The notes under the pieces: generated by a model
The model's database searches: none
The model's input: only the letters and a program-made list of their open reading frames with translations
Told to the model about the DNA's origin: nothing
Part shown: positions 11,569 to 45,271 of the stretch, piece after piece
How the letters are laid out: each line of letters opens with the position of its first letter
Numbering within the stretch: the first letter of the stretch is position 1
Position numbers and translations under genes: made by a program
NCBI GenBank assembly: GCA_030913385.1
Contig: CP133159.1
Span: 640,584 to 704,583, forward strand
DNA length: 64,000 bases
Origin: Cytophagaceae bacterium ABcell3
Lineage (GTDB): Bacteria; Bacteroidota; Bacteroidia; Cytophagales; Cytophagaceae
Direction: 5' to 3'

Positions 11569-11620
11569 GCGATTCAATTTAGGTAATTTGCTGCCTACTG
11601 GTATAAAAATATTTTTTACT
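11562..11620. terminator. Hairpin between convergent genes; also direct repeat copy 2
   Basis: CCAGTAGGC...GCCTACTGG forms a 9-bp stem, followed by A/T runs. The stop codon of 10456..11568 lies inside the left arm. Confidence 0.5.
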
Positions 11621-14288: not shown

Positions 14289-14789
14289 TCATTCCTCTCC
14301 CGTCTCTATTGCTTCAAACAAAAGGGATTCGCCTGAGTCGCCGTAGTAGACAGTCATGATATTGTAATACATGCTAAACTCCGTTGCTGTCTCAATAGCT
14401 TTTATAAGCCTGCTTTCGTAGCTTAAAAGCTCTGACGGCTCTAATAGAGATGAAGAAACTTCTGCTTCACCTGTGCTGATTTGATCATTGTTGACTGTAT
14501 AGAAGCCTTCGAACCTGTTTAAAACGGCTCCGGTATATACGCCTCCATCAAAAGTTATAATAATTCGGTAGTTAGGATTGTTGTCGTAGGCAATACATGG
14601 GGGGTATTCAAGCTGGTCGCCGCCTTTTGTTTGGAATCCAATGAACTTCCAGCTCCCGTTAAACTCTTTTTCCTCACCTTGCTTCACTGAGTAGCTTACT
14701 CTGCATGGAGGGTCTGCACGCTCTTCTTCTTTTTGGCAAGAAGACATTATTACCAGAAGCAATAATGTAAACGGTAAAATTATTTTCAT
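14289..14789 (-). CDS. Lipoprotein, hypothetical
   Basis: Signal peptide with lipobox: MKIILPFTLLLLVIMSSCQ. Confidence 0.6.
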   Translation of the reverse strand: MKIILPFTLLLLVIMSSCQKEEERADPPCRVSYSVKQGEEKEFNGSWKFIGFQTKGGDQLEYPPCIAYDNNPNYRIIITFDGGVYTGAVLNRFEGFYTVNNDQISTGEAEVSSSLLEPSELLSYESRLIKAIETATEFSMYYNIMTVYYGDSGESLLFEAIETGEE

Positions 14790-28657: not shown

Positions 28658-29100
28658 TGTGTTGGTTGCGTATCTATGGTGCTATGGTTTGTTAAAAATA
28701 CTTTTTTGTAGTAAAGCAGAAAGCTTTTGGGCAAGGAGGCGACTGCCTTTGTATGCCCGCATATACGGTTTCATTTTATTTTGAGATGGTGTTTTTTTTA
28801 AATGCTAACGCCGTTGTTTGATAATTTTGTTAAGCTAGTAAATATTTATTTTTTTATTGAAATTGTATAGTTGGATAGACGGTTTTAATAGAATTTTAAT
28901 TTCTATACTTTGTTTATCGTCAGTGGATTGCAAGGAAGAGCGTTGCTGTTAATGAATGGCTACTTTTAGGATTAATATGGGGTAGTTGTTGCTATAGTTT
29001 TAAAAAAGTAGAGCCCGTTTATATACGGACTCCGATAACATGTTTTTATTAGTTTTATGCGTAAAGTTTGGCTAAAGAGCCCTCTCGTTACCTAGTGGAC

Positions 29101-29340
29101 TTATAGGTCATGGCCGCCTATGGCTATAATGCGTAAGTTTTCAGCTTCGTACCCTGTTTCACGAAATATTTTTATAATCACATCAGGAGTAATTTCTTCT
29201 CCTGATACACTAAGGATGTTTTCTTCACTTTCCAAATCGAGCTTCCACTTGCTTATCAACTCCTCTTTGTCTAGCGCTGTTGATACTTTTGCAAGGTCTT
29301 TTTCATTGTCTATATTGGTCTTGAATTTCAATATATTCAT
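29101..29340 (-). CDS. Small HMA-like domain protein lacking CxxC
   Basis: MNILKFKTNI...GYEA has the ferredoxin-like HMA pattern but no metal-binding cysteines. Confidence 0.3.
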   Translation of the reverse strand: MNILKFKTNIDNEKDLAKVSTALDKEELISKWKLDLESEENILSVSGEEITPDVIIKIFRETGYEAENLRIIAIGGHDL

Positions 29341-29404
29341 AGTGATTAGTCTTTTTATATTAACCCTTTGCGTGAGGCAAATGTTAACGTTATTGTGGTA
29401 TTAT

Positions 29405-29590
29405 TAACAGCCCCCACCCCACCTCTTGTTGGTGTTTTCACCAACAAACCTTCCCGCAAAGGCTGCACCCAACATTTTAGCTATGAAAAGATGGGCAGCA
29501 TATAAAGCCCGAGCAAAAAGAGGGGAATGATTTCTTGCATTTAAAGCCATTAACGCCAACGGTGCAGCCATATATAATATTCCATAACCT
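29405..29590 (-). repeat. Palindromic-hairpin repeat unit (reverse orientation)
   Basis: CCCCCACCCCACCTCTTGTTGGTGTTTTCACCAACAA..., about 80% identical to 29715..29905. Confidence 0.75.
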
Positions 29591-29714
29591 CATTGTATAC
29601 TGTGGCCTTTTTGCCTATCTATTGAGGTGTTTTTGTTCCGCCCCTATCGGGGCTAAATGCTGATTTCAGACTCTTTCTACCGATATTCCGTCCCTATCGG
29701 GACTGGTAAAAGTT

Positions 29715-29905
29715 GTTTAATTTCCCTCCTCCCTCTTGTTGGTGTTTTCACCAACAAACCATCCCGCCTAGGCAGCACCCAACATTTTAGCTAATTAAGA
29801 TGGGCAACATATTAAGCCGAGCAGCAAAAAAAGGAAACATTTTCTGTCATTTAAAATCAATTATAGCGCCAACGGTGCGCAATATATAACAATGGGCAAT
29901 AGACA
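29715..29905 (-). repeat. Palindromic-hairpin repeat unit (reverse orientation)
   Basis: CCCTCCTCCCTCTTGTTGGTGTTTTCACCAACAAACCATCCCGC... Confidence 0.75.
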
Positions 29906-30282
29906 ACAGCCTTTTTAAAACCCCGAAGGGGCGCAATAAGAAAACGGTACCTTATAGGTAAAAATGGGGATATTATTTTCTTTAAGAATTTTCTTGGCAA
30001 CACCTATTTTGTCTATAATTATATTGTCCCTAAAAGGGCATTTAAGCTCCACTCCCCCCTTCAAGTGGTTATCAACCCTTGGAGGGGTTGAAAAAAGTTT
30101 TTTAGCTCAAAAAAATATTTTCTATTCCTGTTAAATTTTTTGAACAAAAGGTTTTGGTTGCCGTATAAATCATCGCTCAAAAGTTCGATTTGCCTTGCGT
30201 TACAGTAGGTCAACAAATAAAAATCCTCGTTCTGTTTGCGCATATTTTGCTTTTTATTAATTTAGGGCTTCTTTATTTAGCG

Positions 30283-30918
30283 ATGTTAGAAATATTCTCA
30301 GAATCACTTAAACCGGTCAATTTGCCGGGTACATTTATACTCATAATCGTCCTCTGCTATTGGATTGTTAATTTTTTAGGACTTTTTGATCTCGAAATGT
30401 TTGATACTGGAGATATCGAATCAGGCAAAGGAGGTACAGATACCGGCTCTGGTGGAATGGTTTCATCTGCCGCTGAATTTTTTCATTTCGGAGATGCTCC
30501 TGTGACAATTGTCATCAGTTTTTTTGCCCTTTTCTTCTGGGCAGGCTCATTGCTGACAAACCATTACTTGCACAATGAATTTATGCTGATCGCACTTTTG
30601 GTATATGTGCCTAATATTATTGTCAGCCTTTTATTAACTAAAATTTTCGTCAAGCCTGTATCAAAGCTTTACAGTAAACTGAAAAGTCAAGAGGCGCAGG
30701 TGGTAGACTTTTCTGGATCTGTTTGTACCGTAATTATTGGTTCGTCAGAGGGGCGCATGGGGCAGGGAGAGATAAACGAAAACGGTAATAGCTTCAGGGT
30801 GAATATCAGGGCTACTGCTGGAAATTCCTTGTCTAGGGGCGATACAGCTTTGCTTATTGAGGTAGGAGAAAACGGGGTTTACTTGGCCGAACCTTATGTT
30901 GAAACAATGCAATCTTAA
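30283..30918 (+). CDS. NfeD-like membrane protein (YuaF-like)
   Basis: N-terminal TM helices and a C-terminal OB-fold-like domain (GSVCTVIIGSSEGRMGQGEINENGNSFRVNIRATAG...ALLIEVGENGVYLAEP). It sits immediately upstream of the flotillin gene. Confidence 0.65.
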   Translation: MLEIFSESLKPVNLPGTFILIIVLCYWIVNFLGLFDLEMFDTGDIESGKGGTDTGSGGMVSSAAEFFHFGDAPVTIVISFFALFFWAGSLLTNHYLHNEFMLIALLVYVPNIIVSLLLTKIFVKPVSKLYSKLKSQEAQVVDFSGSVCTVIIGSSEGRMGQGEINENGNSFRVNIRATAGNSLSRGDTALLIEVGENGVYLAEPYVETMQS

Positions 30919-30953
30919 AACCGCAACATATTTACTAATCAATTACTAAAGTT

Positions 30954-33047
30954 ATGTTTGAAAGTGTAATTCTAACCACCATACTGGCGGTGGTGTTTTT
31001 CTTTTTTATGGCAGTAGCACTTGCCGTAAAATGGTACCACAAAATGCCTCAGGGCAAAGCTATTGTCCGTACTGGGGCTGGTGGTACAAAGGTCAGCTTT
31101 ACGGCCATGTTCGTCATCCCTGTCCTTCATAAGAAGGAAATTATGGATGTTTCGTTGAAAATGCTGGAAATTGGCAGGATGGGCAAAGACGGCCTTATCT
31201 GTAAAGACAACATAAGGGCAGACATTAAAGTGGCCTTTTTTGTAAGGGTAAATAAGGCGGTGGAAGACGTTATTAAAGTAGCGCAAACCATTGGTTGTGA
31301 CAGGGCTTCGCACAGGGAAACGCTAATTGCAATTTTTGATGCTAAGTTTTCTGAGGCACTTAAAACTGTCGGAAGAAGGTTTGATTTTGTGGACCTTTAT
31401 TCTGACCGTGATAGGTTTAAGCAGGAAATACTTGATATCATAGGTACTGAACTTAACGGATATCATCTAGATGATTGCGCCATTGACTATTTGGAGCAGA
31501 CGTCTATGGAGTTCTTGAAAGCAGATAATGTTCTTGACTCTCGCGGTATCAAAAAAATTACAGAGATAACTGCTGAGCAGAAAGTGCTGGCAAACCAGAT
31601 TAAGAGGGACGAAGAGAAGGTTATTAAAAAGCAAGATGTAGAGGCACAGGAAGCTATTCTTGAACTTAACAGACAGCTGACTGAAAGTGAAGAAAGGCAA
31701 CAGCGTGAAATCTCTATCATAAAGTCTCGTGAAAGAGCAGAAGCTGATAAAGTACAGTCTGAAGAAAAGCAAAAATCTGAACTTGCAAGGATCAGGTCTG
31801 AAGAAGAAGTGGCCATTGCCGAGGAGAATAAGAAGAGACAGGTGATTGTGGCAGCTAAGAGCAAAGAAAGAACAGAGGCTATTGAGACCGAAAGGGTAGA
31901 GAAAGATAAGATGTTGGAAGCAACCGAAAGAGAAAAACTGGTGTCTCTAGCTCAGATAGAAAAAGACAAAACGCTGGAAGAAGAGAAGAAAAACATGCAG
32001 GATGTGATCCGCGAGCGTGTTATGCTTGAGAAGACAGTGGTAGAACAAGAAGAGAAAATTAAAGACACTAAAGCGCTTGCTGAAGCAACTAGGCAGAAAG
32101 AAGTTGCCCTTACACTTGCATTGACAGAGGCTGAGGAGCAGAAGTTGAAAGAGATCAAGCAAGCCGAAGCGCACAAGCTATCTGCTGAACTTAAGTCTCA
32201 GCAACAACTGATAGAAGCAGAAGCAGATCAGAAAGCTTCTGAGAAACAAGCTGAAGCTAGAAGACAATTGGCAGAAGCGACTATCGTGGAAGAATCAACT
32301 GCTGGAATGGCAGAAGTGAAAGTAATTGAGGCGAAAGCTAACGCTATTGAGAAACAAGGTGCTGCTGAAGCCAATATTATGGAAAAGAAAGCTTTGGCAG
32401 AAGCAAGGGGCATCGAAGCAAAAGCTACGGCAGAAGAGAAGAAGGGTATGGCAGAAGCAAGTGTGCTAAACAAGAAAATGGTGGCCGAAGCCAAAGGTAT
32501 CGAAGAGAAAGCAAGTGCTATGAAGAAGCTAGACGGTGTTGGCAAAGAGCACGAAGAATTCAGGCTTAACCTTGAAAAACAAAAAGAAATCGAATTGGCT
32601 CAGATCAGTATCAATAAGGATATTGCTGATGCTCAGGCTAAGGTTATCGGAGAGGCGCTTAGGGCTGCCAAAATTGATATCGTTGGTGGTGAGACTATGT
32701 TCTTTGACAAGATCATTGGCTCTATTACTTCTGGTAAATCTGTAGATTCATTTGTTCAAAACAGCATCGTTGCCGGAGATGTGAAGAAGGCATTGTTGGG
32801 CGATGGAAGTAAAGGAAATATCATTCAGAGGATCCAGGAGTTTATGACTTCCAATGCTATTTCCATAGAAGATGTGAAAAACCTGACTATTACCGCATTC
32901 TTCGGAAAGCTGATGGCTCAGACTGTTGACCCTGACTTTAAAGCTTCTCTGTCTGCCTTGCTCGGTGATGCGCAGAAAGCTGGACTGGCCAACAAAACAG
33001 TTTCATCTCTTGGGCTTAACGGAGCTTCTGTTGCCAAAGAAAACTAG
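30954..33047 (+). CDS. Flotillin-like SPFH/band-7 protein with long EA-rich coiled coil
   Basis: N-terminal TM, an SPFH domain (AIVRTGAGGTKVSFTAMFVIPVLHKKEIMDVSLKMLEI) and an extended Ala/Glu/Lys-repeat coiled coil, as in FloT/YqiK. Confidence 0.8.
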   Translation: MFESVILTTILAVVFFFFMAVALAVKWYHKMPQGKAIVRTGAGGTKVSFTAMFVIPVLHKKEIMDVSLKMLEIGRMGKDGLICKDNIRADIKVAFFVRVNKAVEDVIKVAQTIGCDRASHRETLIAIFDAKFSEALKTVGRRFDFVDLYSDRDRFKQEILDIIGTELNGYHLDDCAIDYLEQTSMEFLKADNVLDSRGIKKITEITAEQKVLANQIKRDEEKVIKKQDVEAQEAILELNRQLTESEERQQREISIIKSRERAEADKVQSEEKQKSELARIRSEEEVAIAEENKKRQVIVAAKSKERTEAIETERVEKDKMLEATEREKLVSLAQIEKDKTLEEEKKNMQDVIRERVMLEKTVVEQEEKIKDTKALAEATRQKEVALTLALTEAEEQKLKEIKQAEAHKLSAELKSQQQLIEAEADQKASEKQAEARRQLAEATIVEESTAGMAEVKVIEAKANAIEKQGAAEANIMEKKALAEARGIEAKATAEEKKGMAEASVLNKKMVAEAKGIEEKASAMKKLDGVGKEHEEFRLNLEKQKEIELAQISINKDIADAQAKVIGEALRAAKIDIVGGETMFFDKIIGSITSGKSVDSFVQNSIVAGDVKKALLGDGSKGNIIQRIQEFMTSNAISIEDVKNLTITAFFGKLMAQTVDPDFKASLSALLGDAQKAGLANKTVSSLGLNGASVAKEN

Positions 33048-33055
33048 TAGCTCTA

Positions 33056-33097
33056 ACCTGAAATACCTAATAGAAAGTTCTATTACGTATTTCAGGT
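33056..33097. repeat. 42-bp near-perfect palindrome built from MITE terminal sequence
   Basis: ACCTGAAATACCTAATAGAAA|GTTCTATTACGTATTTCAGGT has arms 19/21 complementary. The right arm matches the MITE 3' terminus AGAAAGTTCTAATGCATGTTTCAGGT. It lies 9 nt after the flotillin stop. Confidence 0.8.
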
Positions 33098-33283
33098 TTG
33101 CATAAAAAATTATTTGGTCCGAATGGTGCGATAAGCCTTACTATGGGGCAAAAACACAGTAATCCAGCGTATTATTGCGGTAATGCTGATGTTTTGATGT
33201 AAAAGCTTTTGTCATTGTAATAGCTTTATTGCTCCTTCCGGATCAAAGACACTCCGGGGCTTTTAGTGCCGGAGTGTATATTA

Positions 33284-33452
33284 ATCCTGAAATATGCATT
33301 AGAACTTTCTGTTTCGTGTCAAAATAACTTCAAATCAGACGCTTAGCTCGTATTTGGTTTTTAACCATAGAACCACTATGCTTTGCAAATAAAATACGCT
33401 GATTTTTTGTTCTTTTGCCCTCATAACGAAATCTAATACATATCCAGGTTAA
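33284..33452 (-). repeat. MITE-like repeat copy B (TTAA-flanked)
   Basis: Reverse complement about 90% identical to 14952..15122; TTAA at both borders. Confidence 0.85.
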
Positions 33453-33499
33453 TTGTCCCTGATCATAAATATTTTCCGGAATTAAACTTTCACCCTTCC

Positions 33500-36400
33500 A
33501 TGGCAGAAGATAAAAACCCTTCAGCAGAAGCAGAAAAGAACAATAACAATATAGACGCCGGAGCTTACCGGATCCTCAGAAACCGATTGGATACGGCTGC
33601 GAACGACTTGAAGTCAAGGCTTGGCAAGCTGAACGAAGAGCGGAAATCTGTTTTCGGTTCAGTCGAAAGCCGTATCATCGGAAATGAAAGAGTTACTACC
33701 GAAAACAACTGCGTTGCCCGCGACATGATTTCTGTGGGGCATCACTTGCTTTTTGGATATAATGTCCACTTGGGACTTAAATCTGAAATGGAGGTAAGCG
33801 ATGTTTTTAATGTGTATGAGTTTAATGACAATTCTTTTCATGATGCAGGGCTTGAACTGATCAATGATAGCACATTTGAAAGCGACTTCAGAGACCTTTA
33901 TAAATATTATAAAAATACCGTTTTTGAGAAGTTTGCTGTCATAGGACCTTTTCTGTACATGGTTTTTCGTGTAGGGAAAAATAAAGGGGACATAAAAACT
34001 TTTAAATGGCTTATTGCTGAAAATGCCTTTCAATACCAGGGCAACCGCAGCGATCATGAGTTTAAATTTCCTCCTCAGTTTGAGTTTGAATGGGTAAGGA
34101 CTACCAGGGACAGCCATAGGAGTGGAAAACATCCGCATGTTTCTGTGTTGGACAAGGTATTTATAGAAACGGTGGGTGGCGATTTGACTATTAAGGTTGA
34201 AGATAATACCGACAATGGCGAAGGTATTCTTTCCGAGCCAGTAGAGGATAGGGACCAGAAACTTGATGATGCTGAAATTTACTATGCTGATCTTGACAAC
34301 ATTATTCTTCTAAAAATTAAACCTTTTAGGGAAAAAGAATTCCGGTATATAGTATATAACCATAGAATCAAGCAGGCAAAAAGGATAGACGCTATAAAGG
34401 ATTCCTGCGTGCTGCTACCGGACAACCATGGTATTATATTTTCTAAGGGATACTATCTCCAGACAGGTGAATATAAGCTGTTCGAGAACGAAGTTCAGGG
34501 GCTTCTTTTCGAAAAAATGATAGCTTCTCCCAATGGAGAGGATTTTATGTATGTGTTTTATAGCATGGATTACGGCGCTTATATTATGCTGCCGTACAAC
34601 CTTATAAATCAGCATGTGGAAAACCTAATTGTATGTCACGGTTATTCATTTTTTCCTGATGGCGAGCTGATTTATTTTACAGACCAAAGCAATGCTACAA
34701 AACATCATACCATTCAAATATGGCAGACACCGTTTGTAAGCCCAGATTATGTTCCTCCTGTTCAGTCGGACTGTTACCTGTTCAAGATTGGCAATAAGGA
34801 TATTGTCCGCGCTATGGCGGAATGTACCGAGCTTCTCAACCTTTTGCAGAAAGATGATGAATCTTATGCAAACTTGTATTATGATATAGTTAAACTGGCG
34901 GGCGATATTACAGATTCTTATTTTTGGATCAGGGAAGAAGCGGCCTTTAATTTGGCAGCAGCTTTAACTGTTGTCCGAAATACTGCCTCCTCTGCTATCG
35001 ATGAATTTCAGAAAGTCCAGCGGATTAAGCAAAACACCCGACAACAGACAGAGAAATATGCTGTAGAGGTTAAAGAAGTGCTGCGGGTTATTAGTAGGGA
35101 ACGTTTTGAAGATATTGATGCATTTGTGGGGGTTCTGTCAAAAATTAGGGGGCTACGGGGAGAGGTTATTTCTTTGAAAGACCTGAGGTATGCCGATACT
35201 AAATTTATAGAAGGGCTGGAAAAAGAGCTGGAGAAAGAAGCTGAAAAGGTTTCTGAAAGGTGCGTACGGTTCTTGCTCGACGAATCATCGCTTACGCCTT
35301 ATCATACCAAGCTGGAAGAGCAGAAGGAAGGCATTGAAAAGGCCACTAGGGTTGCAGAGGTTTCTGAAAGGATTGAAGAACTTAATGATATTTCTGCCGG
35401 GTTGGAAATGCTTATAGATACCGTTTCTAACCTTAAAATTGAGGACGCCACAGAAACAACCCGTATTATTGACAATATTTCCCTTATTTTCTCAGACTTA
35501 AACCAACTCAAATCAAGGGCAGGAAATATTAGGTCTGGTTTTAGGAAAGGGGAAAGCACCGCAGAGTTTCATGCGCAAATACGCTTGGTTGAGCAGGCCA
35601 TCGTAAACTATCTTGATCTGTGCGACACACCCGAAAAATGCGAGGAATACCTTACCCGCTTAATGGTCCAGTTGGAAGAATTAGAAGCAAAGTTTTCTGA
35701 CTTTGATGAATTCATTACTAACATTACTGAAAAGCGGGAAGAAGTATACGAGGCATTTGAAAACCGGAAACTCAACATTGTTGAAGCCCGAAACAATAGG
35801 GCCAACACGTTAATGTCCTCTGCTGACCGGATTTTGAAAGGTATTCAGAACCGGGTGGCCCGTTTTGAGGATACCAAAGATATCAATGGTTACTTTGCCT
35901 CTGATATGATGATCGACAAAGTGCGAGATATCATAAAAGAGCTTCAGCAACTGAATGACTCTGTAAAAGCGGATGAACTTCAGGGTAAGCTGAAAAATTT
36001 AAGAGAAGAAGCCTTAAGGCAACTGCGGGATAAGCAGGATATTTTTGTGGCAGGGGCCAACTTGGTTAAGTTTGGAGATCATCATTTCTCTGTTAATACC
36101 CAAGCACTCGATTTAACCATTGTCAACCGTAACCAGGAATTGTTTTATCACTTAACCGGAACGGGCTTTTTTGAAAAAGTGGAAGATGAAAGACTGGCTG
36201 GTACCAGAGAAGTTTGGGAGCAAACCGTTGTTTCAGAGAATCAACAAGTTTATAGAGGAGAGTATCTTGCCTATAAAATCTATACAGACGCAGTGGCTGG
36301 AAGAGGGGAAAGTAAAGATCATTTATATATGCTGACCATTCCTGACCTACAGGCTTATGTGCAGCAGTATATGGCACCAAGATATGCAGAAGCGTATGTA

Positions 36401-38416
36401 AAAGGGGTGCATGACAAAGATGCTGCCCTTCTGCTAAAGTCACTTCTTGAGCTGGACCACAATTCTGACTTGCTTCGCTATGATCCACTTACCAGGGCTT
36501 GTGGATATTTCTGTTGGAATTATGCCTTTGGTGTAGAGAGGCGTGCAATTTTGGATAAACGACTTAAAGGAACAGGTATCATATTGAAAGTCTTCCCTGA
36601 CCCTGGTTCTTTCAGCGAGGTCCGTGCAGACCTTGAAGCGGAGGTGAAAGCTGTACTTGCTAAAAACGAGCTTTTTGCAGAAGTTTCATGTGCTCAGGTG
36701 GCGGCTTATCTTTTTGATGAATTGGTACGAAGCAATACCTTTATACTTAGCCATGAGGCCGAGGTACTTTATAAAAACTTTACCCAGTATCTCGAAAAAA
36801 GCCGGACCAAAGAATTGCTGGAGTCGTCTTTGGAAATGCTGAAAGACAATTGTGAAGAGCAGTTCATACTAGCCCGTAACTGGTTACATGCTTTTATAAA
36901 GAACAAAGAAGGTCAGGAGCAGCTTAAAGAATTTGCGGACGAAGCTACTTTGTTGTTGCTAAATAAAGATGAGCAATGGAATATTGTTAAGGCTTCTCTA
37001 CAGGTAACCCTTGAAGGTTTCTCCGGTAACCACGCTGTAGTGGAAGACGGAAAATACCACTTACATTATAACAAGTTCCTTAATAAAATGCGGCATTATG
37101 AATCTCATACTGTGCCGCTTTTCGAAAGGTATATTAAGGCCAAGAACAAGGCGGTTGATGAAAAGAAAGCCAGCCTAAGGTTGCAGGAGTTCCTGCCAAA
37201 AGTCATGAGTTCTTTTGTGCGTAACAGACTTATTGATGAAGTATACCTTCCTTTAATAGGGGCTAATTTTGCTAAACAATTGGGTGCCGCCGGCGATAAC
37301 AAACGTACAGACAATTCCGGTATGCTTTTGCTGGTATCGCCTCCGGGTTATGGAAAGACCACGCTTATGGAGTACATTGCCAGTCGATTGGGTATTATTT
37401 TCATGAAAATAAACGGACCGGCTCTTGGCAATAGGGTTACCTCCCTCGATCCAGTCGAAGCTCCAAATGCAGGAGCACGTGAGGAAATAGAAAAGCTTAA
37501 TTTAGCTTTTGAAATGGGCGATAATGTCATGATTTATGTTGATGACATTCAGCATTGTAGTGCTGAGTTCCTGCAAAAGTTCATTTCCCTTTGCGATGCC
37601 CAACGTAGGATTGAAGGCGTGTACAAAGGTAGGTCAAAAACTTATGATTTTAGGGGTAAGAAGGTCTGTGTGGTAATGGCGGGTAACCCATATACTGAAA
37701 CGGGTGAGAAGTTCCGTATCCCTGACATGCTTGCCAACAGGGCTGATACATATAACCTTGGTGATATTATTGGCGATAAAGCTGAAGCATTCAGGTTGAG
37801 TTATATTGAAAATAGTATGACCTCTAACACTACGCTGAATAAACTGTCAAATCGTAGTGCGAAGGATATTTATACCTTTATGCAACTAGCCGAAAACGGT
37901 GACCGGGACGACCTAAGCTTTGAAGGAAACTATTCTCCAGAAGAAATTAGTGAAATTGTTTCTGTCCTTAAAAAGCTGTTTGCTGTAAGGGAGGCTGTGT
38001 TGAAAGTAAACCTTCAATATATTTATTCTGCCTCTCAGTCTGACGATTACCGTGAGGAGCCAGCCTTTAAGATGCAAGGTTCATACCGGAACATGAATAA
38101 AATGGCAGAACAGGTAGTTCCGGTTATGAATGACGAGGAGCTAGTAACTTTGATCCGGACGCACTATAACAACGAGTCGCAAACCCTTACCACTGACGCT
38201 GAAGCCAACCTTCTTAAGTTTAAGGCTATTAATAATTGGTTAACGGAAGAAGAAGAGGCGCGGTGGAATGTCATAAAACAAACGTTCCAGAAAAACCAGA
38301 AGTTTAGAGGCGCAGGAGACAATCAGGTAGGCCTGCTTGTTTCGCAGCTTAGTGTTCTCGGCGACGGTGTGGACGGTATTCGAAAGGCGATTGAATATAG
38401 AGGAAAGGGTGAATAA
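33500..38416 (+). CDS. Giant (1638 aa) protein with C-terminal MoxR/McrB-like (helix-2-insert clade) AAA+ ATPase domain
   Basis: Walker A LLLVSPPGYGKTTL, Walker B VMIYVDDIQHCSAEFLQ, sensor-1 VVMAGNP, and an Arg in RIPDMLANRAD. About 1250 aa of upstream sequence has no motif I recognise, plus coiled-coil segments. Confidence 0.7.
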   Translation: MAEDKNPSAEAEKNNNNIDAGAYRILRNRLDTAANDLKSRLGKLNEERKSVFGSVESRIIGNERVTTENNCVARDMISVGHHLLFGYNVHLGLKSEMEVSDVFNVYEFNDNSFHDAGLELINDSTFESDFRDLYKYYKNTVFEKFAVIGPFLYMVFRVGKNKGDIKTFKWLIAENAFQYQGNRSDHEFKFPPQFEFEWVRTTRDSHRSGKHPHVSVLDKVFIETVGGDLTIKVEDNTDNGEGILSEPVEDRDQKLDDAEIYYADLDNIILLKIKPFREKEFRYIVYNHRIKQAKRIDAIKDSCVLLPDNHGIIFSKGYYLQTGEYKLFENEVQGLLFEKMIASPNGEDFMYVFYSMDYGAYIMLPYNLINQHVENLIVCHGYSFFPDGELIYFTDQSNATKHHTIQIWQTPFVSPDYVPPVQSDCYLFKIGNKDIVRAMAECTELLNLLQKDDESYANLYYDIVKLAGDITDSYFWIREEAAFNLAAALTVVRNTASSAIDEFQKVQRIKQNTRQQTEKYAVEVKEVLRVISRERFEDIDAFVGVLSKIRGLRGEVISLKDLRYADTKFIEGLEKELEKEAEKVSERCVRFLLDESSLTPYHTKLEEQKEGIEKATRVAEVSERIEELNDISAGLEMLIDTVSNLKIEDATETTRIIDNISLIFSDLNQLKSRAGNIRSGFRKGESTAEFHAQIRLVEQAIVNYLDLCDTPEKCEEYLTRLMVQLEELEAKFSDFDEFITNITEKREEVYEAFENRKLNIVEARNNRANTLMSSADRILKGIQNRVARFEDTKDINGYFASDMMIDKVRDIIKELQQLNDSVKADELQGKLKNLREEALRQLRDKQDIFVAGANLVKFGDHHFSVNTQALDLTIVNRNQELFYHLTGTGFFEKVEDERLAGTREVWEQTVVSENQQVYRGEYLAYKIYTDAVAGRGESKDHLYMLTIPDLQAYVQQYMAPRYAEAYVKGVHDKDAALLLKSLLELDHNSDLLRYDPLTRACGYFCWNYAFGVERRAILDKRLKGTGIILKVFPDPGSFSEVRADLEAEVKAVLAKNELFAEVSCAQVAAYLFDELVRSNTFILSHEAEVLYKNFTQYLEKSRTKELLESSLEMLKDNCEEQFILARNWLHAFIKNKEGQEQLKEFADEATLLLLNKDEQWNIVKASLQVTLEGFSGNHAVVEDGKYHLHYNKFLNKMRHYESHTVPLFERYIKAKNKAVDEKKASLRLQEFLPKVMSSFVRNRLIDEVYLPLIGANFAKQLGAAGDNKRTDNSGMLLLVSPPGYGKTTLMEYIASRLGIIFMKINGPALGNRVTSLDPVEAPNAGAREEIEKLNLAFEMGDNVMIYVDDIQHCSAEFLQKFISLCDAQRRIEGVYKGRSKTYDFRGKKVCVVMAGNPYTETGEKFRIPDMLANRADTYNLGDIIGDKAEAFRLSYIENSMTSNTTLNKLSNRSAKDIYTFMQLAENGDRDDLSFEGNYSPEEISEIVSVLKKLFAVREAVLKVNLQYIYSASQSDDYREEPAFKMQGSYRNMNKMAEQVVPVMNDEELVTLIRTHYNNESQTLTTDAEANLLKFKAINNWLTEEEEARWNVIKQTFQKNQKFRGAGDNQVGLLVSQLSVLGDGVDGIRKAIEYRGKGE

Positions 38417-38463
38417 TACTGATGTGTTAGGAGAGAGACTGAGGTGGTATCCTGTTCCGGTTA

Positions 38464-38883
38464 TTGTTTTTTATAAACTGGAACTATTTATTATATTCAG
38501 ATAGTCAGGAACAAAAAACACATTTGGACATGCCTATTAAAAGGTTTTTCAAAATATTGCAGGCCAACCTCAACCAAGGAAAGGAAGGGTATACCTACAT
38601 TCCTCCAGAGGAGCCTCCTAAGGAAAAGAGCTTTTATGAGCCCAAAACCGTGAGCAATGAAAATCCTGTGGATGTGAAGGAGGCGGGCTATTATTCCAAT
38701 CTTGAGTTGCCTTATGGAGCGGGATTTGATGAAATTAGGAAAAACTATAGGCGTTTAATGAAGCAATATCATCCTGACAAGTTTCATAATGATTCGGGAA
38801 GGAAAGCTTATGCAGAAGAGGTAAGCAGGTTGTTAATCGAGGCATACACTTATTTTGAGGATAAATTCTCAAAAAAAACTTGA
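38464..38883 (+). CDS. Small J-domain protein (DnaJ-like co-chaperone)
   Basis: C-terminal J-domain FDEIRKNYRRLMKQYHPDKF... The start may be the Met at 38531. Confidence 0.75.
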   Translation: MFFINWNYLLYSDSQEQKTHLDMPIKRFFKILQANLNQGKEGYTYIPPEEPPKEKSFYEPKTVSNENPVDVKEAGYYSNLELPYGAGFDEIRKNYRRLMKQYHPDKFHNDSGRKAYAEEVSRLLIEAYTYFEDKFSKKT

Positions 38884-38933
38884 TATTTTAAAGGAAAAGA
38901 GGAAATTTACTAAGTATTTAAATTTGAGCAAAT

Positions 38934-39659
38934 ATGTTTAATTGGTTAAAAAGGCTTTTTATGATAGGTGGAGCCGAAGCACATAAAGCACTGGACAAAC
39001 TTGAAGACCCTGTCAATATGATAGAGCAAGGCATTCGTGATCTGAAAGAAGACCTGAACAAAGGACTTAAGAGCCTTGCGGAAGTGAAAGCCCTTGCTAT
39101 TAAAGCTCAAAATGACCAAAAGTCTCAAACCAATTCTGCCAGGGAATATGAAGAGAAAGCGGTTTTGTTGTTGAAGAAAGCCCAAACCGGTGGACTAGAC
39201 CCTACAGAAGCTGACAGGTTGGCGAGCGAAGCCCTTATGAAGCAGCAGGCTATTGCCAAACAGGTTGAGGCGCAAAATGCGACCATTAAGCAGTACCAGG
39301 AGATGGCTGCACAAATAGAAAGTAACAATAACCTTCTCAAAAAGAAGATTGACAACTATGAATCCGAACTGGGGTCTTTAAAAGCACGTGTTAAAGTGGC
39401 TAAAAGTACAAAAGACTTTAACAAATCCATGGCCGGCCTTGACTCTAATGAAACCCTTCGGATGTTAGAGAGAATGAAGGACAAAATATCTCACGAAGAA
39501 GCCCTTGCCCAATCCTATGGCGCTATTGCCGAAAGCAAAACTTCTATAGACGATCAGATAAACCGTGCTTTAGAAGGAGCTACCGTAAACCCTGAGGTGA
39601 AGGATTCTTTAGCTGAACTAAAAGCAAAACTGGGTATGGATAAAAAGCTTGAGGAGTAG
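38934..39659 (+). CDS. pspA: PspA/IM30 (Vipp1) family protein
   Basis: MFNWLKRLF...LDKLEDPVNMIEQGIRDLKEDLNKG is the canonical PspA N-terminus; 241 aa, all coiled coil. Confidence 0.85.
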   Translation: MFNWLKRLFMIGGAEAHKALDKLEDPVNMIEQGIRDLKEDLNKGLKSLAEVKALAIKAQNDQKSQTNSAREYEEKAVLLLKKAQTGGLDPTEADRLASEALMKQQAIAKQVEAQNATIKQYQEMAAQIESNNNLLKKKIDNYESELGSLKARVKVAKSTKDFNKSMAGLDSNETLRMLERMKDKISHEEALAQSYGAIAESKTSIDDQINRALEGATVNPEVKDSLAELKAKLGMDKKLEE

Positions 39660-39687
39660 AGACGTAACTTTATAATAGTGTAGTTTA

Positions 39688-39722
39688 ACGCAGGGAGGCT
39701 GTTGGTTTTCCTGCGTTTTTTG
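39688..39722 (+). terminator. Rho-independent terminator of the pspA operon
   Basis: ACGCAGGGAGGCTGTTGGTTTTCCTGCGTTTTTTG. Confidence 0.8.
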
Positions 39723-40499
39723 ATTATTCTGTAGTATGCAATAGAACTTTCCCCTGTCCTTTTTTTCAGCACTTCTACTTGTAAGAATTGATGAATTTGC
39801 CACACCTAACGAGGTTTTAGATAATCGAATAAACTCTTTGAAACTAAGTTATTTTTAGATAATTTAATATCTGTATTTAAACGTTTACAAACGTTTGATA
39901 AAAGTTTGCAAACGGTTTTGTTGTTGGAAATCAACGTATTGCTGTTTTGGACAATAAGAAATTATAAAGGAGATATATCCTGAATTTTGGGGATATACAA
40001 TCGTTATGGCCAATTTATGAAATACAGACTTTTACATATTATCTTTCTGTTGCTGATATTAATTGGATGTGATTTTAAAACATCCAGCGAATATTTTAAT
40101 GATGGAAATATGAAGTCAAATAATGGAGATTATGAAGGTGCTATAAAAGATTTTACTTTGGCAATTAATAAAAATCCTAATGACTATGAATCATATACTA
40201 ATAGAGGAGCTGATTATGCAGCAATTGGAAGGTATAAAGAAGCAATAAGTGATTATAATAAAGCTGTAGAATTAAATCCCAGCAACATAATGGCATACTT
40301 CAATAGAGGTAATTTAAAATCAAAATTAAATGATTTTAATGGTGCAATTGAAGATTATAATCAGGCAATTAAACTTAAGGGGGGAGAAAACCTTTATGTG
40401 GAAATTCATGATAATGATTTCTTAGGTATTCGCTCAACTGACGTAAGAATGGAAAATATCAGATTACAAAGTAAGCCTTCGGGCAAGTGCATGTTGATT

Positions 40500-41954
40500 T
40501 TATAATTTTACCCACTTCCCGGGTAGCAGTTCTTCCAGCCTGTTTACCGGGTGATTGTCTATTCTTTCCAGAACATCTTTCATCCATTCCAATGGGTTTA
40601 CACCGTTGATTTTGCAGCTTGCCACAAGCGAGTATATTTGGGCGGCTCTCTGGGCAGCATCATGTGAACCGGCAAACAGATAATTTTTCCTTCCTATGGC
40701 TACTGGCCTTATTGAGTTTTCCACCAGATTGTTATCTATCTCCAGCTTGCCATCCTCAAGATATATGGAGAGCCTTTCCCATCTGCTCAAGGAGTATTCG
40801 AGCGCCTTTCCAATAGGACTCCTAGGGGCAATATTAGGGTACAGGTTTTTCATCCATTCTTCCAGGTCGTCCAATGTTGTTTTTGCATCAAGCCTTGATT
40901 CCTTTCTTTCTTCAAAAGACATCCCGGCCTCCCTTGCTTTACGCTCAATATCATATAACTTCTGAAATTCTTTCAAGGCATGTTCTGCATTTTCTTTGTC
41001 ATTGTCCAATGCTTTCTCAAACATCCTTCTGGCATGTGCCATACAATGGAACAATGTTATGCCCTTGATGTTGGCAAACATATCATATACGTTATACCCG
41101 TCACATTGCAGGTATCCCTGAAAACCCTTCAGTATATCTGATGGCCCTTCGCTCCCGCGCCCGGGACGATAGTCGAACAGCACCTGTTTCCCGACAGGGT
41201 CATAATATACCCAGTAATACCCCCGGTGGATTTTACTTTTTTTATCCTTGTCGAGAACTTTTATGGGTGTCTCGTCTGCCATCAGGTAACCGGCTTGCAG
41301 TGTCCTCTTTTTATGCAGTTCGTATAAGATTTTAAGCTTGTTTACCCCTTGTTTTACCCAGTCTGACATTGTGGAAGAAGGAAAATTAAGGCCTTCTCTC
41401 TTAAATATCTGTATCTGGCGGTATAAAGGAAGGTGGTCAACATACTTGCTGACAACAAGGAAAGCGACAAGGCTTGCTCCGGCTATCCCTTTCTCTATCG
41501 CCCTGTATGGCAATTCTCCAATGGCAACACCCTCCCCTTCAGGTTTTGCGTATTTCGGGCGTACAATTTTGCGCACATGAAACTTTCCGGTGGTATATTC
41601 AAGAACCTCTGTCACCTCTTCCCCAATTTTTTTCATGCCTGAGGTATCTTCTTCAGGCTCAACAACCTCTTCCACCCTTGGTACATGTGCCGGTATAGGG
41701 AGGCGGCCCGGGTGCTTGCGGGCTGTTTCTTTTTTGACACGCTTAAACCTGACGACCTCCTCTTTTTCAGGGGCAGTTGCCTGCTCTTCACCAAGTCCCA
41801 GGTTTAACTGTTCCGGTGCGGACGAAGGCACAAAACGCTCGCTTTTGGTGCCATATATGAGGCGCTTCAGCTCTTTGAGCTCAAACTTCAAAAGTGCGAT
41901 CTCGGACATCGCCTCCTCATATTTTTCTTTATAGTCTATACCTTCGGCAAGCAT
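40500..41954 (-). CDS. IS66 family transposase (TnpC)
   Basis: 484 aa; LQCDGYNVYDMF and AHARRMF are typical of the IS66 DDE transposase. Confidence 0.85.
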   Translation of the reverse strand: MLAEGIDYKEKYEEAMSEIALLKFELKELKRLIYGTKSERFVPSSAPEQLNLGLGEEQATAPEKEEVVRFKRVKKETARKHPGRLPIPAHVPRVEEVVEPEEDTSGMKKIGEEVTEVLEYTTGKFHVRKIVRPKYAKPEGEGVAIGELPYRAIEKGIAGASLVAFLVVSKYVDHLPLYRQIQIFKREGLNFPSSTMSDWVKQGVNKLKILYELHKKRTLQAGYLMADETPIKVLDKDKKSKIHRGYYWVYYDPVGKQVLFDYRPGRGSEGPSDILKGFQGYLQCDGYNVYDMFANIKGITLFHCMAHARRMFEKALDNDKENAEHALKEFQKLYDIERKAREAGMSFEERKESRLDAKTTLDDLEEWMKNLYPNIAPRSPIGKALEYSLSRWERLSIYLEDGKLEIDNNLVENSIRPVAIGRKNYLFAGSHDAAQRAAQIYSLVASCKINGVNPLEWMKDVLERIDNHPVNRLEELLPGKWVKL

Positions 41955-42010
41955 GTTGCAAAGATAAATAATATACCTATGTAGGTGGTATTAGGAAAAA
42001 AAGAATAAGT

Positions 42011-42370
42011 TTAAAGATTTCCAGGACTTTTATATCTTTTGCGGTGCCTGACCGACTCAAGGGAAATCCCTTGTAAGACCAGTTGCAATACCGAGGCGGA
42101 TATTTCAGATTTGGTCACATTTTTGCAATGGACAGGTATTTCATAAGTCCCTCTTTCAAGGCGTTTGTGATACATACTGAAACCGTCGCCTTCCCATAAA
42201 AGGAGCTTGACATGGTTTCGGTTTCGGTTCAGGAAAATAAAAATGTCCCCGTTCATGGGGTTTTCGTTAAGTTTGCTCCTTACAATACCTGATAGGCTGT
42301 CAAACCCTTTCCGCATGTCGGTTTTGCCCGAATAGAGAAAGTACCTGCACTGGTGAGACAATGAAAGCAT
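42011..42370 (-). CDS. IS66 accessory protein TnpB (Orf2)
   Basis: GKTDMRKGFDSLSGIV...FIFLNRNRNHVKLL. Confidence 0.8.
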   Translation of the reverse strand: MLSLSHQCRYFLYSGKTDMRKGFDSLSGIVRSKLNENPMNGDIFIFLNRNRNHVKLLLWEGDGFSMYHKRLERGTYEIPVHCKNVTKSEISASVLQLVLQGISLESVRHRKRYKSPGNL

Positions 42371-42372
42371 GG

Positions 42373-42672
42373 CTAGCTGACTAATTGTTTAACAAATGAT
42401 GGATCTGCCATGCCGTGGAATATGACCTTGGCACCGGAAGGAAAGACAACTTCCATGTTGCCGGCCGCAGGGTTAATTTCATCAGGGCTGCTTACTTTCA
42501 GAGGGACAAATCCGGTACCGGGCTCCTCTGTTCTATATTTGCCGCACCAATAGATGAATTTTTGATAATTGATGTTCTGCCGAAGGCTAAATTCTTTTTT
42601 ACTGATACCGCTTTGTTGCCAGAGCTGATAAAGCTCACGCATCTGGTCAGATACTTTTGTGTTTGTTGCCAT
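42373..42672 (-). CDS. IS66 Orf1 (TnpA, HTH)
   Basis: 99-aa protein upstream of tnpB inside the IS boundaries. Confidence 0.7.
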   Translation of the reverse strand: MATNTKVSDQMRELYQLWQQSGISKKEFSLRQNINYQKFIYWCGKYRTEEPGTGFVPLKVSSPDEINPAAGNMEVVFPSGAKVIFHGMADPSFVKQLVS

Positions 42673-43828: not shown

Positions 43829-44108
43829 AACCGGGGGTAACGCTATGGGGGGTGCTATTCTGGGTTGGGGTTTTCTGTAGGTTAGAATTGGGAACTAATG
43901 CAGCTTTTTGCAAAGTATAACAAGTCAGAACAGGGTCTATGGTTGGCTTAAAAGGATAAGGAGGCAGTTCTCACTCCTGTTCTAACATTGGTAATTAGGA
44001 TTTGAATAGGCTAACGCTTAAGATTGTATAACAAGAGCCGTATGATGGGAGACTATCAAGTACGGTTCTGTGAGAGGCTTGGGGTGAAATTCCCCTTGCC
44101 TACTCGAC
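43829..44108 (+). mobile_element. Group II intron remnant (domains V and VI intact, ORF-less; 5' boundary uncertain)
   Basis: Domain V GAGCCGTATGATGGGAGACTATCAAGTACGGTTC (44035-44068) matches the group II DV consensus GAGCCGUAUG...ACGUACGGUUC. DVI AGGCTTGGGGTGAAATTCCCCTTGCCT-A-CTC carries a bulged A 6 nt before an ...AC 3' end at 44108. Confidence 0.6.
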
Positions 44109-44221: not shown

Positions 44222-45271
44222 ATGAGCGAAATAGTAGCCTATAAAGATTTTTATAAAGAAATAATTGATACGATTAATGCCAGAAGATATAAGGCATATA
44301 AATCGTTGAACAGGCATCACATAGAACACAATTTTGAACTTGGTGAAATAATTGTAAAACATCAGGAAAAACAAAAGTGGGGACAATCAATAGTTGAGAA
44401 ACTTTCTAAAGATATTACCAAGCAAATTGATGGACTAACAGGTTATTCGCCTCAGAATCTATGGAAAATGCGTCAATTTTATCTTGAATATAGAGAGAAA
44501 ACTGTACTGTATGAATTAGCCAAACAAATTCCGTGGGGACAAAATATGCTAGTTCTCCATCAGGTAAAAGACGACAATGAACGAAGGTACTATTTAGAAG
44601 CAACAGCAAGGTTGGGGTGGAGTCGAGCTGTTTTGTTAAATCAAATTAAAGCAGATGCTTATAAGCATCATGTGTTAGATAAGAAGTTAAGCAATTTTGA
44701 AGCTGCGTTACCGTCACATCTATCAGAACAAGCAAATGAAGCTTTAAAAAGTGAATATAATCTTGATTTTCTCGGAATTACCAAACCTGTCCATGAACGA
44801 GAAATTGAAAATAGACTAATTGAAAATATTCGCGATTTATTACTTGAGTTAGGATATGGATTTAGTTTTATAGGAAATCAGTATCGGTTAACATTGAACA
44901 ACAAAGAGTATTTTATTGACTTGCTTTTTTATCACCGGTTTTTGAAATGCTTGGTTGCAATTGAATTAAAAACTGTTGAATTTGAGCCTGAATTTGCAGG
45001 AAAAATGAATTTTTATCTTGAACTTCTCGACAGTAAGGAAAAGCAAGCAGATGACAATCCTTCAATTGGGATTATTCTATGCCCGACAAAAGACGATATT
45101 GAGGTTGAATTTGCTCTGAGGTCTAGTAATAAACCCATTGGTGTATCTGAATATAAATTAACTCATGAACTTCCTGAAAATCTAAAAGGAAAAGTTCCTA
45201 CTTCGAAAGAATTAAAACAAATGCTAACAATAGCTATTAGTAATGCAGGCGGTTCAGCTAAAGGAATATAA
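44222..45271 (+). CDS. YhcG/DUF1016-family PD-(D/E)xK nuclease-like protein
   Basis: The C-terminal YFIDLLFYHRFLKCLVAIELK core matches how I remember the DUF1016 family. Confidence 0.6.
   Translation: MSEIVAYKDFYKEIIDTINARRYKAYKSLNRHHIEHNFELGEIIVKHQEKQKWGQSIVEKLSKDITKQIDGLTGYSPQNLWKMRQFYLEYREKTVLYELAKQIPWGQNMLVLHQVKDDNERRYYLEATARLGWSRAVLLNQIKADAYKHHVLDKKLSNFEAALPSHLSEQANEALKSEYNLDFLGITKPVHEREIENRLIENIRDLLLELGYGFSFIGNQYRLTLNNKEYFIDLLFYHRFLKCLVAIELKTVEFEPEFAGKMNFYLELLDSKEKQADDNPSIGIILCPTKDDIEVEFALRSSNKPIGVSEYKLTHELPENLKGKVPTSKELKQMLTIAISNAGGSAKGI

Follow-up and report, generated by a model that had tools for sequence, protein, structure and literature searches.

The closest described relative of the gene cluster considered here is an operon reported by Ravi et al. 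2024 (mSystems, PMC11237479), in which a PspA gene is linked to genes for a YqiJ/YuaF protein (the name given there to the NfeD-like component), a Band-7/flotillin protein, and a protein composed of a beta-propeller, a coiled coil and an AAA+ domain. The same work describes a shortened flotillin-YqiJ-ATPase form as more widespread, suggests ATP-dependent remodelling for PspA-linked AAA+ proteins, and mentions an HKD hydrolase in some proteobacterial versions. Here we describe a run of five genes encoding an NfeD-like protein, a flotillin, a giant predicted ATPase, a small J-domain protein (the J protein) and a PspA. The run lies in a 64,000-nt stretch of contig CP133159.1 from Cytophagaceae bacterium ABcell3 (GCA_030913385.1, forward strand, 640,584-704,583). 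This whole stretch is called the window, and its coordinates are counted from its first letter.

The first three genes of the run match the operon of Ravi et al. (PMC11237479; Dokdonia donghaensis ANH61663.1) in identity and order, with a YqiJ/NfeD-like gene followed by those for a flotillin and a giant ATPase. The published operon also agrees with the loci surveyed below in that a yjfJ-type PspA is linked to it in Bacteroidota, an arrangement reproduced in 18-22 of these loci. However, the window differs from the published operon by lacking the CesT/Tir gene and the divergent cHTH regulator, by carrying a J gene before pspA instead, and by having pspA downstream of the ATPase gene rather than upstream of nfeD. 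The NfeD-flotillin-giant ATPase cluster and its PspA link are already published as a comparative-genomics prediction (PMC11237479). An initial annotation of this DNA, made from the sequence alone, knew of no other pspA operon with a giant AAA+ ATPase and a J-domain partner. The arrangement of PspA, flotillin and giant AAA+ genes is not new, and only the J partner is absent from that paper.

Smaller gene pairs of the same kind occur in model organisms. NfeD-flotillin pairs like that in the window are found as yuaF-floT in Bacillus subtilis and yqiJ-yqiK in Escherichia coli, and B. subtilis pspA-ydjGHI links PspA to SPFH proteins, as is seen in the window. We know of no giant ATPase or J-domain gene in these B. 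subtilis and E. coli operons. A yjfJ-type operon (E. coli yjfIJKLMC) carries DUF350, DUF4178 and polyamine-synthase genes, and such genes are also seen beside a Clostridium J gene and beside the giant ATPase cluster of plasmid pQBR103.

We favor, at a probability of about 60%, the interpretation that the window holds two independent, conserved membrane-maintenance modules that have come to lie side by side in this genome. Module A comprises the NfeD-like, flotillin and giant ATPase genes, and module B comprises the J and PspA genes. The independence of the modules is supported by related genomes, in which a J-pspA-PLD group is convergent with the giant gene, 9 kb away, or absent, and on a promoter-like motif that has been kept in front of the J gene.

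Gene order in the window and in related genomes

All five open reading frames (ORFs) are co-directional on the plus strand, and ORF calls confirmed both the genes and the order originally given for them. The NfeD-like ORF (30190..30918) is followed after 35 bp by the flotillin gene (30954..33047) and after a further 452 bp by the giant ATPase gene (33500..38416). The J gene (38530..38883) begins 113 bp beyond the giant gene, and pspA (38934..39659) lies 50 bp beyond the J gene. An intrinsic terminator consisting of a 14-bp stem and TTTTTGATTAT (39687..39717, +) is located 3′ of pspA and is the best terminator-like site within 29000-40600, whereas the scan found no such site between the giant, J and pspA genes. 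A sigma70 promoter scan was set aside because its model is uninformative for Bacteroidota, and the terminator calls alone were kept. Given the short gaps and the lack of an intervening terminator, the giant, J and pspA genes may be co-transcribed in this genome by read-through. The description of these genes as closely spaced and co-directional is accurate for the window, but comparison with other genomes indicates that the arrangement is neither conserved as a unit nor ancestral.

To place the cluster among its relatives, an alignment of the giant protein was scanned against one genome per species, and the best 80 loci (48-60% identity) were retained. These derive from Bacteroidota, Planctomycetota, Verrucomicrobiota, Desulfobacterota, Kiritimatiellota, Hydrogenedentota and, in two cases, Bacillota; being the best loci returned, they form a biased sample for phylum counts. 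Genes were called with a simple longest-ORF heuristic, and the loci were then searched with the proteins of the window. Flotillin and NfeD counts refer to the 63 loci in which 3.5 kb or more of upstream sequence was available, and PspA counts to 51 loci with wide flanks.

The linkage within module A is very strong. Upstream of the giant gene, a flotillin gene is present in 59 of 63 loci, and an NfeD-like gene directly precedes flotillin in 58 of 63. With the exception of one locus (L050), all three are read from the same strand, with median gaps of 15 bp between the NfeD-like and flotillin genes (59 loci) and 161 bp between the flotillin and giant genes. Homologs of the giant protein fall into more than 4600 sequence clusters, with 53-63% identity among the best 120 and 48-63% across phyla, and those in Gammaproteobacteria, Actinomycetota and Deinococcota show 39-42%. 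The triad persists at this last distance in Pseudomonas fluorescens pQBR103, a Streptomyces plasmid, Proteus mirabilis and Deinococcus grandis. Together, the 63-locus survey and these four distant loci place it in about ten phyla. No gene is conserved downstream of the giant gene across the surveyed loci.

The two genes of module B behave differently. A pspA gene lies near the triad in 22 of the 51 wide-flank loci, all from Bacteroidota, and in 21 of these 22 it is located 5′ of nfeD. The whole sample contains 23 PspA-positive loci, again all from Bacteroidota, with pspA upstream of nfeD in 22. This upstream pspA is preceded by a 131-aa gene matching Pfam CesT_Tir_1 (E 4e-54), and a divergent helix-turn-helix regulator lies beyond it; a tblastn search of the window revealed no CesT_Tir homolog, and no divergent cHTH regulator was found there either. 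The J gene was found in only one of the 80 surveyed giant loci, the closest one (L001), where J and pspA lie downstream on the opposite strand. The proposed recurrence of PspA beside the flotillin/NfeD-ATPase genes is therefore supported (22/51), whereas a conserved triad of ATPase, J and pspA is not: the J gene accompanies the giant gene in only one small Cytophagaceae subclade, and homologs of the giant ATPase are largely unlinked to pspA or J genes.

Additional evidence comes from the nearest relatives of the giant protein, which were looked up at 60-63% identity. In loci L001, L086, L087 and L088, the NfeD-like, flotillin and giant genes run in one direction and face a convergent group in which J is followed by pspA and then by a PLD gene of the HKD type. 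The PLD/HKD gene (PLDc_2, E 9e-31) lies directly 3′ of pspA at 15504-15980(-) in L001 and 11358-11795(-) in L086, and further such genes lie 3′ of pspA at 10756-11193(-) in L087 and 8285-8722(-) in L088. J and pspA are absent within 8 kb in L081/L082 and L083; on the contig that carries L081, they occur as a J-pspA pair about 9 kb upstream of nfeD (L099). Locus L084 has a degenerate J gene (162-422(-)), divergent from nfeD, with no pspA start before the end of the contig. Its HPD motif has become DPE, and its J-domain is probably inactive. The pspA DNA of the window is about 68-69% identical to pspA of L001, L087 and L099. PLD/HKD genes also occur near CesT-type clusters (L005, L064, L067), and none is present in the 64-kb window.

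Because the closest relatives carry J, pspA and PLD genes convergent with the giant gene, the co-directional J-pspA order in the window is, judging from these gene orders, a local inversion of a separate J-pspA(-PLD) unit. A T-rich, promoter-like motif, TTTTTTATAAAyTGG (TTTTTTATAAACTGG; 38467..38483, +), is found just 5′ of the J gene, and the same motif directly precedes J in L001 and L086, where J opposes the giant strand. Retention of this motif suggests that the J-pspA pair has probably kept its own promoter.

Mobile elements abound in the flank beyond pspA. On the minus strand, an IS66 element (39987-42672 region) lies 0.8 kb from pspA and includes a transposase gene (40500-41954), a TnpB_IS66-like ORF (42011-42370) and a further ORF (42373-42672). 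The 3′ end of a TPR lipoprotein ORF (39987-40505) overlaps the transposase gene, and so the TPR gene may have been truncated by the insertion. Located next to the inverted J-pspA segment, the IS66 element may be related to the rearrangement and to the absence of the PLD gene. A group II intron domain (Rfam, 44033-44108, 66.5 bits) is followed by genes for a YhcG/DUF1016 PDDEXK nuclease (44222-45271) and an rve-family integrase (45639-46445).

The J protein and its link to PspA

The J protein of the window comprises 117 aa and is encoded within ORF 38464..38883 (+). Its probable start is the ATG at 38530, in agreement with the deposited protein P0121 and with orthologs. An amphipathic N-terminus (38530-38577) is joined by a low-complexity linker to a C-terminal J-domain (38689-38865), which matches DnaJ PF00226 (40.6 bits versus 27.8) and carries the HPD motif at residues 81-83 (38770-38778). 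Its description as an Hsp70 recruiter is sound on these grounds.

A search with the single sequence retrieved only the protein itself, and a metagenome scan with a two-sequence J alignment confirmed no relatives. With a profile built from five J sequences, 1831 matches were gathered, of which the best 120 were analyzed. These proteins range from 69 to 183 aa (median 120), in all 120 the HPD motif lies a constant number of residues before the C-terminus, and they derive from Bacteroidota, Clostridium, Bacteriovoracaceae, Zetaproteobacteria and other lineages.

The J family shares the N-terminal consensus M-[LIF]-F-[KD]-R-[LFI]-x-N-I-[IL]-[RK]-[SA]-N-[IL]-N, which is amphipathic with a hydrophobic moment of ~0.6. 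Presumably, this motif is also similar to the start of E. coli PspA (MGIFSRFADIVNANIN...) and to that of Synechocystis Vipp1 (MGLFDRLGRVVRANLN...). In PspA and Vipp1, helix alpha0 serves as the membrane-binding element (Jovanovic 2014, cited by Ravi et al.). A hidden Markov model (HMM) built from N-terminal residues 1-26 of 93 J proteins was compared with the 8148 ORFs of all loci. J proteins rank first, and every further match up to E ~0.2 is a PspA, including six with E < 0.01; about 25 of 29 PspAs fall within E < 3, aligned N-terminus to N-terminus. In addition, one J family member (P0170) gives a sub-threshold PspA_IM30 match, with residues 3-56 aligned to profile positions 2-54 (E 0.021). 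Likeness to alpha0 was also sought with an ad hoc regular expression, which proved uninformative.

The genomic contexts of J genes, of which 12 independent places were inspected, point in the same direction. The J gene adjoins pspA in 11 of these 12 contexts, spanning four phyla. In Clostridium (L094/95), J and pspA are followed by genes for DUF4178 and DUF350 and, further on, spermine synthase. In Bacteriovoracaceae (L096), the order is J, CesT_Tir_1, pspA and DUF4178, and Zetaproteobacteria (L100) likewise have J, CesT_Tir_1 and pspA in series. The lineage of L097/98 has J convergent with a pspA gene that is followed by a CesT/YbjN gene, and two short metagenome contigs (L089, L092) carry J and pspA with 4-bp overlaps. 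No giant ATPase gene was found within 5-6 kb in L094/95, L096, L097/98 or L100. We conclude that the J protein belongs with PspA and not with the giant ATPase. CesT/Tir proteins and J proteins both look like PspA handlers, since their genes occupy the same slot 5′ of pspA and sometimes co-occur.

The J-pspA loci of Clostridium, Bacteriovoracaceae and Zetaproteobacteria are yjfJ-type PspA operons of Ravi et al. (PMC11237479), and yet the text and one supplementary file of that study never mention DnaJ, J-domains, Hsp70 or DnaK. The J partner of pspA, its alpha0-like N-terminus and its spread across phyla are absent from Ravi et al. 2024 (PMC11237479) and from Popp et al. 2022. All three are also absent from a 2026 review of bacterial ESCRT-III and from the results of targeted literature searches, which covered few subscription-journal papers. 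Thus, the pairing of pspA with a J gene appears to have gone undescribed so far.

The PspA of the window is readily recognized by Pfam PF04012 (131.9 bits versus 33.9, E 3.5e-38), with residues 5-232 aligned to profile positions 3-217. It scores far below the equivalog cut-offs for TIGR02977 (50 bits versus 243) and LiaH (40 versus 380), and by these profile comparisons it is a divergent, yjfJ-like subtype, as in Ravi et al. A related PspA operon is found on pQBR103, an experimentally tractable megaplasmid from P. fluorescens SBW25, where a yjfJ-type operon runs into NfeD-like, SPFH and giant ATPase genes on one strand (L102; NC_009444.1 85112-97641). The order of that operon is PspA/IM30, rhomboid, DUF2491, DUF350, DUF1190 and glutathionylspermidine synthase.

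Pairing of a dedicated J co-chaperone with a PspA/IM30-family protein has a counterpart in chloroplasts. In Chlamydomonas, VIPP1 oligomers are built up and taken apart by HSP70B, CDJ2 and CGE1 (PMC10602608 and PMC13051332, citing Liu et al. 2005, 2007), and in Arabidopsis cpHsc70-1 acts on VIPP1 (PMC12798727). Module B may be analogous to the CDJ2-HSP70B-CGE1 system. However, the CDJ2 link is biochemical and belongs to a eukaryotic organelle, whereas the bacterial pair was recognized as neighboring genes. The bacterial J proteins are also tiny (~120 aa) and carry a PspA-alpha0-like helix, a feature to which our comparison with CDJ2 does not extend.

The giant ATPase and its flotillin and NfeD neighbors

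The first gene of module A encodes an NfeD/YqiJ-YuaF-like membrane protein with N-terminal transmembrane helices and a C-terminal beta-rich domain. Its ORF opens at TTG 30190, and ortholog comparison indicates ATG 30283 as the probable start. The copy in the window has no Pfam match even at E ≤ 1, and an NCBIfam scan was also empty. Its orthologs give sub-threshold matches, in register, to YqiJ_N (22.7 bits versus 23, E 1.2e-4) and to the NfeD C-terminal domain (17.5 versus 29.1, E 0.005).

The second gene encodes a flotillin-type SPFH protein of 697 aa. Its hydrophobic N-terminus, which serves as a predicted membrane anchor, and its very long coiled coil rich in Glu, Ala and Lys are both visible in the sequence. 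The full-length protein with its coiled coil was assigned to no family in Pfam or NCBIfam scans, but when the N-terminal 249 aa were scanned alone, residues 32-172 matched Band_7 PF01145 (E 3e-9, 37.6 bits versus a cut-off of 23.6). A Streptomyces ortholog is named "flotillin family protein" in RefSeq. In the upstream nfeD-flotillin pair of the initial annotation, the flotillin is upheld by Band_7, and the NfeD-like assignment depends on orthologs. In two loci the flotillin appears to be split into two ORFs (L002, 6972-7523 and 7590-9740; L050, 5950-8145(-) and 8242-8793(-)), and in L050 the NfeD-like and flotillin genes also run opposite to the giant gene. In Bacteroidota, as many as four small, unrelated ORFs can separate flotillin from the giant gene.

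The gap before the giant gene, estimated earlier at about 450 bp, measures 452 bp as compared to usually <200 bp in relatives, and it holds a hairpin and an inserted repeat element. The terminator- or attenuator-like hairpin (33055..33098, +) lies immediately 3′ of the flotillin stop codon, is self-complementary in blastn, and has a predicted RNA minimum free energy of -24.1 kcal/mol (z -5.8; 0 of 200 shuffles fold as well). In this genome, transcription between the flotillin and giant genes may therefore be terminated or attenuated at this hairpin. The repeat element (33281..33450, +) matches 15124-14968(-) at 92% over 157 nt and 49858-49763(-) at 91% over 96 nt. Its copies, ~100-170 nt long, lie 50-350 nt before the start of the next gene and are each oriented at that gene. 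These genes encode the giant ATPase, a META-domain (HslJ-like) protein (14289-14789(-)) and an M48 (HtpX-like) peptidase (47266-49413(-)). Because all three look stress-related, the repeat could serve a single regulon as its common promoter or operator; alternatively, it could be a small mobile element. The RNA fold of the repeat is not significant, and an Rfam scan of the intergenic gaps in the region found no riboswitch or RNA element.

The third gene encodes a cytoplasmic protein of 1638 aa, a predicted ATPase with no transmembrane segment. The N-terminal 1250 aa had been regarded as unplaceable, but Pfam assigns residues 36-475 to DUF3686 (E 3.5e-185) and residues 597-676 to DUF7902. Weak AAA, AAA_5 and RuvB_N matches cover residues 1266-1400, those to AAA and AAA_5 spanning 1276-1400, and the scan reported no other models, including any for MIT, protease, DNA-binding or nuclease domains. 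A PDB sequence search gave P-loop-level matches only.

The predicted anatomy is outlined by two confident AlphaFold models based on 41-sequence alignments, one of residues 1-860 with a pLDDT (predicted local distance difference test) of 85.3 and one of residues 840-1638 with a pLDDT of 85.9. A helix at residues 15-52 precedes a beta-propeller-like domain of ~28 strands within DUF3686 (residues 58-410; 33671..34729, +). This is followed by a helical rod of spectrin-repeat-like three-helix bundles that includes DUF7902 (residues 426-848; 34775..36043, +) and by a middle region comprising a small beta domain and a helical domain (residues 855-1226; 36062..37177, +). Foldseek aligned the beta domain with Kelch, WD40, CyRPA and clathrin terminal-domain propellers at probabilities of up to 1.0 but with low TM-scores, and found no known fold matching the middle region. 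Clathrin heavy chain, Nup and IFT-A chains match the models as a whole at the level of architecture only, and the modeled propeller-and-rod layout loosely recalls membrane-coat proteins.

The AAA+ module begins with an alpha/beta core of MoxR/dynein type (~1240-1424; 37217..37771, +). Next come a lid and, at the C-terminus, a helical extension of very high conservation (together residues 1428-1638; 37781..38413, +); this part forms helices at residues 589-798 of the model and contains many invariant columns. The AAA+ class named in the initial annotation is upheld by these models and by sequence motifs. Walker A (SPPGYGKTT, 37337-37363) is invariant in 41 sequences. In Walker B (MIYVDD, 37529-37546), DD replaces the DE of the hhhhDE pattern, and both Asp residues are likewise invariant in the 41 sequences. 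A pre-sensor-1 beta-hairpin is formed by strands 531-536 and 539-544 of the model, which lie between alpha3 and beta4; sensor 1 lies within AGNP, and an NP...R pattern follows it. The helix-2-insert position (model residues 467-484, between beta2 and alpha2) holds a short helix and a loop but no clear hairpin. The closest solved structures of the module are of MoxR, dynein or midasin type.

MoxR proteins such as CbbQ, NorQ and RavA provide the best structural matches for the core and lid, and they share the Walker A motif, the pre-sensor-1 hairpin and the NP...R pattern of the giant ATPase. However, they are ~270-500 aa long and usually have a VWA-domain partner, whereas the giant ATPase has no VWA partner, places its motor after ~1230 residues of propeller, rod and middle domain, and has DD in Walker B.

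The giant protein is 100% identical to P0001, annotated as a "DNA repair ATPase" of Cytophagaceae bacterium ABcell3. This name and the DUF3686 description line "ATPase involved in DNA repair" have been propagated over thousands of proteins. A literature search for DUF3686 found no paper, and literature searches turned up no experimental work on the giant ATPase. The label is without support from the domains, context or literature that we found. That the protein truly acts in DNA repair, with membrane neighbors that are coincidental, is scarcely credible. In its favor are only the inherited name, the description line and a Walker-A-level similarity to RuvB, which extends over ~45 residues around the P-loop and reaches 20-25 bits against cut-offs of 282-299. 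Against it are the lack of any DNA-binding or nuclease domain in the Pfam scan, the empty DUF3686 literature search, and nearly invariant neighbors that are membrane proteins in about ten phyla.

Alternative explanations and a model

The arrangement in the window invites the view of a single dedicated machine made up of the giant ATPase, the J protein and PspA, in which the ATPase, together with J and Hsp70, disassembles PspA in the manner of Vps4. The three genes are indeed co-directional with gaps of 113 and 50 bp, no terminator between them and a strong one after them. Moreover, 22 of 51 loci, and pQBR103 as well, have a pspA gene close to that of the ATPase, and Ravi et al. (PMC11237479) proposed ATP-dependent remodelling for PspA-linked AAA+ proteins. 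Like the gene neighborhoods of Vps4 with ESCRT-III and of CdvC with CdvB, the window has an ATPase gene adjoining a gene of the ESCRT-III superfamily. However, Vps4 is a classic-clade AAA protein that bears a MIT domain at its N-terminus and constantly accompanies Snf7/CdvB, whereas the giant ATPase is mostly unlinked to pspA, has a MoxR/dynein-type module, and shows no MIT domain in the Pfam scan. No pspA gene is nearby in 29 of the 51 wide-flank loci or in any surveyed phylum other than Bacteroidota, with pQBR103, from outside the survey, as the sole exception. Where pspA is present, it is usually at the far upstream end. Furthermore, J, pspA and PLD genes occupy the opposite strand in the closest relatives, and the J family occurs with pspA but without the ATPase in four other lineages. 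We therefore consider a single machine improbable.

Another possibility is that flotillin and NfeD act as an organizing scaffold and that the giant MoxR-type ATPase is a chaperone corralled by it, serving other membrane or membrane-proximal substrates. The tight flotillin/NfeD linkage fits this explanation equally well, and among its MoxR relatives CbbQ and NorQ, for example, act by maturing or remodelling particular client complexes. Prohibitin with m-AAA couples an SPFH assembly to an AAA+ enzyme, as does HflK/C with FtsH (PMC13220708). Module A resembles HflK/C-FtsH in having an SPFH membrane protein linked to an AAA+ enzyme, in its case from genes alone. Unlike FtsH, the giant ATPase has no protease domain and no transmembrane segment, and it belongs to the MoxR/dynein rather than the classic clade. 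The absence of a protease or other effector domain in the Pfam scan and of any candidate client gene conserved in the neighborhood speaks against a client-directed chaperone, and the data fit either direction of action. On balance, we judge this explanation to be unlikely, although it merits some weight.

The possibility that the cluster is an anti-phage or abortive-infection membrane system on mobile DNA is very remote. Homologs are carried on megaplasmids, the flank of the window contains IS66, an rve integrase and a group II intron fragment, and a PLD/HKD gene accompanies pspA in relatives. However, none of eight proteins matches PADLOC, and the triad occupies conserved chromosomal contexts with a very high cross-phylum conservation that is unlike fast-evolving defense genes. 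In addition, PspA and flotillin have established housekeeping and stress roles.

Several observations also weigh against our preferred interpretation of two independent modules. The giant gene lacks an adjacent flotillin gene in 4 of the 63 loci, and the recurrence of pspA beside module A (22 of 51 loci and pQBR103) leaves room for direct contact between the giant ATPase and PspA. With DD rather than DE in Walker B, the giant protein is a candidate rather than an established ATPase, and either it or flotillin may be the one that acts on the other. On the side of module B, the J gene of Raineya (L101) has no pspA neighbor, and the alpha0 likeness is short: an HMM of 16 PspA residues ranks the J protein of the window third of 8119 ORFs, at a non-significant E of 0.78.

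Under the two-module interpretation, the giant ATPase of module A would be a MoxR/dynein-type motor mounted on a ~420-residue rod with a propeller head. It would use ATP to assemble, remodel or dismantle the complex that flotillin and NfeD would form on the inner membrane face or, alternatively, would act on proteins held by this complex. In module B, the alpha0-like helix would take the J protein to the stressed membrane patches bound by PspA, or into PspA polymers, where the HPD-containing J-domain would then switch on DnaK. Hsp70, rather than the giant ATPase, would thus assemble and disassemble PspA oligomers, as a counterpart of CDJ2-HSP70B-VIPP1. We infer all protein-protein contacts and activities in this model from sequence.

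The frequent presence of PspA modules beside module A, with a CesT/Tir or J partner in Bacteroidota and also on pQBR103 with a yjfJ-type operon, suggests that the two modules cooperate in membrane-stress repair. This recurrent adjacency does not suggest that the giant ATPase is a PspA disassemblase. More tentatively, and with rather less than even confidence, we speculate that the small alpha0-J proteins are dedicated Hsp70 adaptors that hand PspA to DnaK in lineages from Clostridia to Bacteroidota, coupled in Bacteroidota to a flotillin-specific giant remodeller.

To our knowledge, bacteria lack Vps4, even though PspA and Vipp1 are relatives of ESCRT-III. A 2026 review notes that, in bacteria, only the ESCRT-III genes themselves appear to be conserved. 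If our proposal is correct, an Hsp70-based turnover machine would serve bacterial ESCRT-III in place of Vps4, mirroring chloroplast CDJ2-VIPP1, and the pairing of pspA with a tiny alpha0-J gene points to DnaK as the missing engine of PspA turnover. Likewise, because of its near-obligate linkage to flotillin and NfeD, the giant ATPase would be the strongest candidate for a partner that lends energy to bacterial flotillin, a protein with dynamics that lack an explanation.

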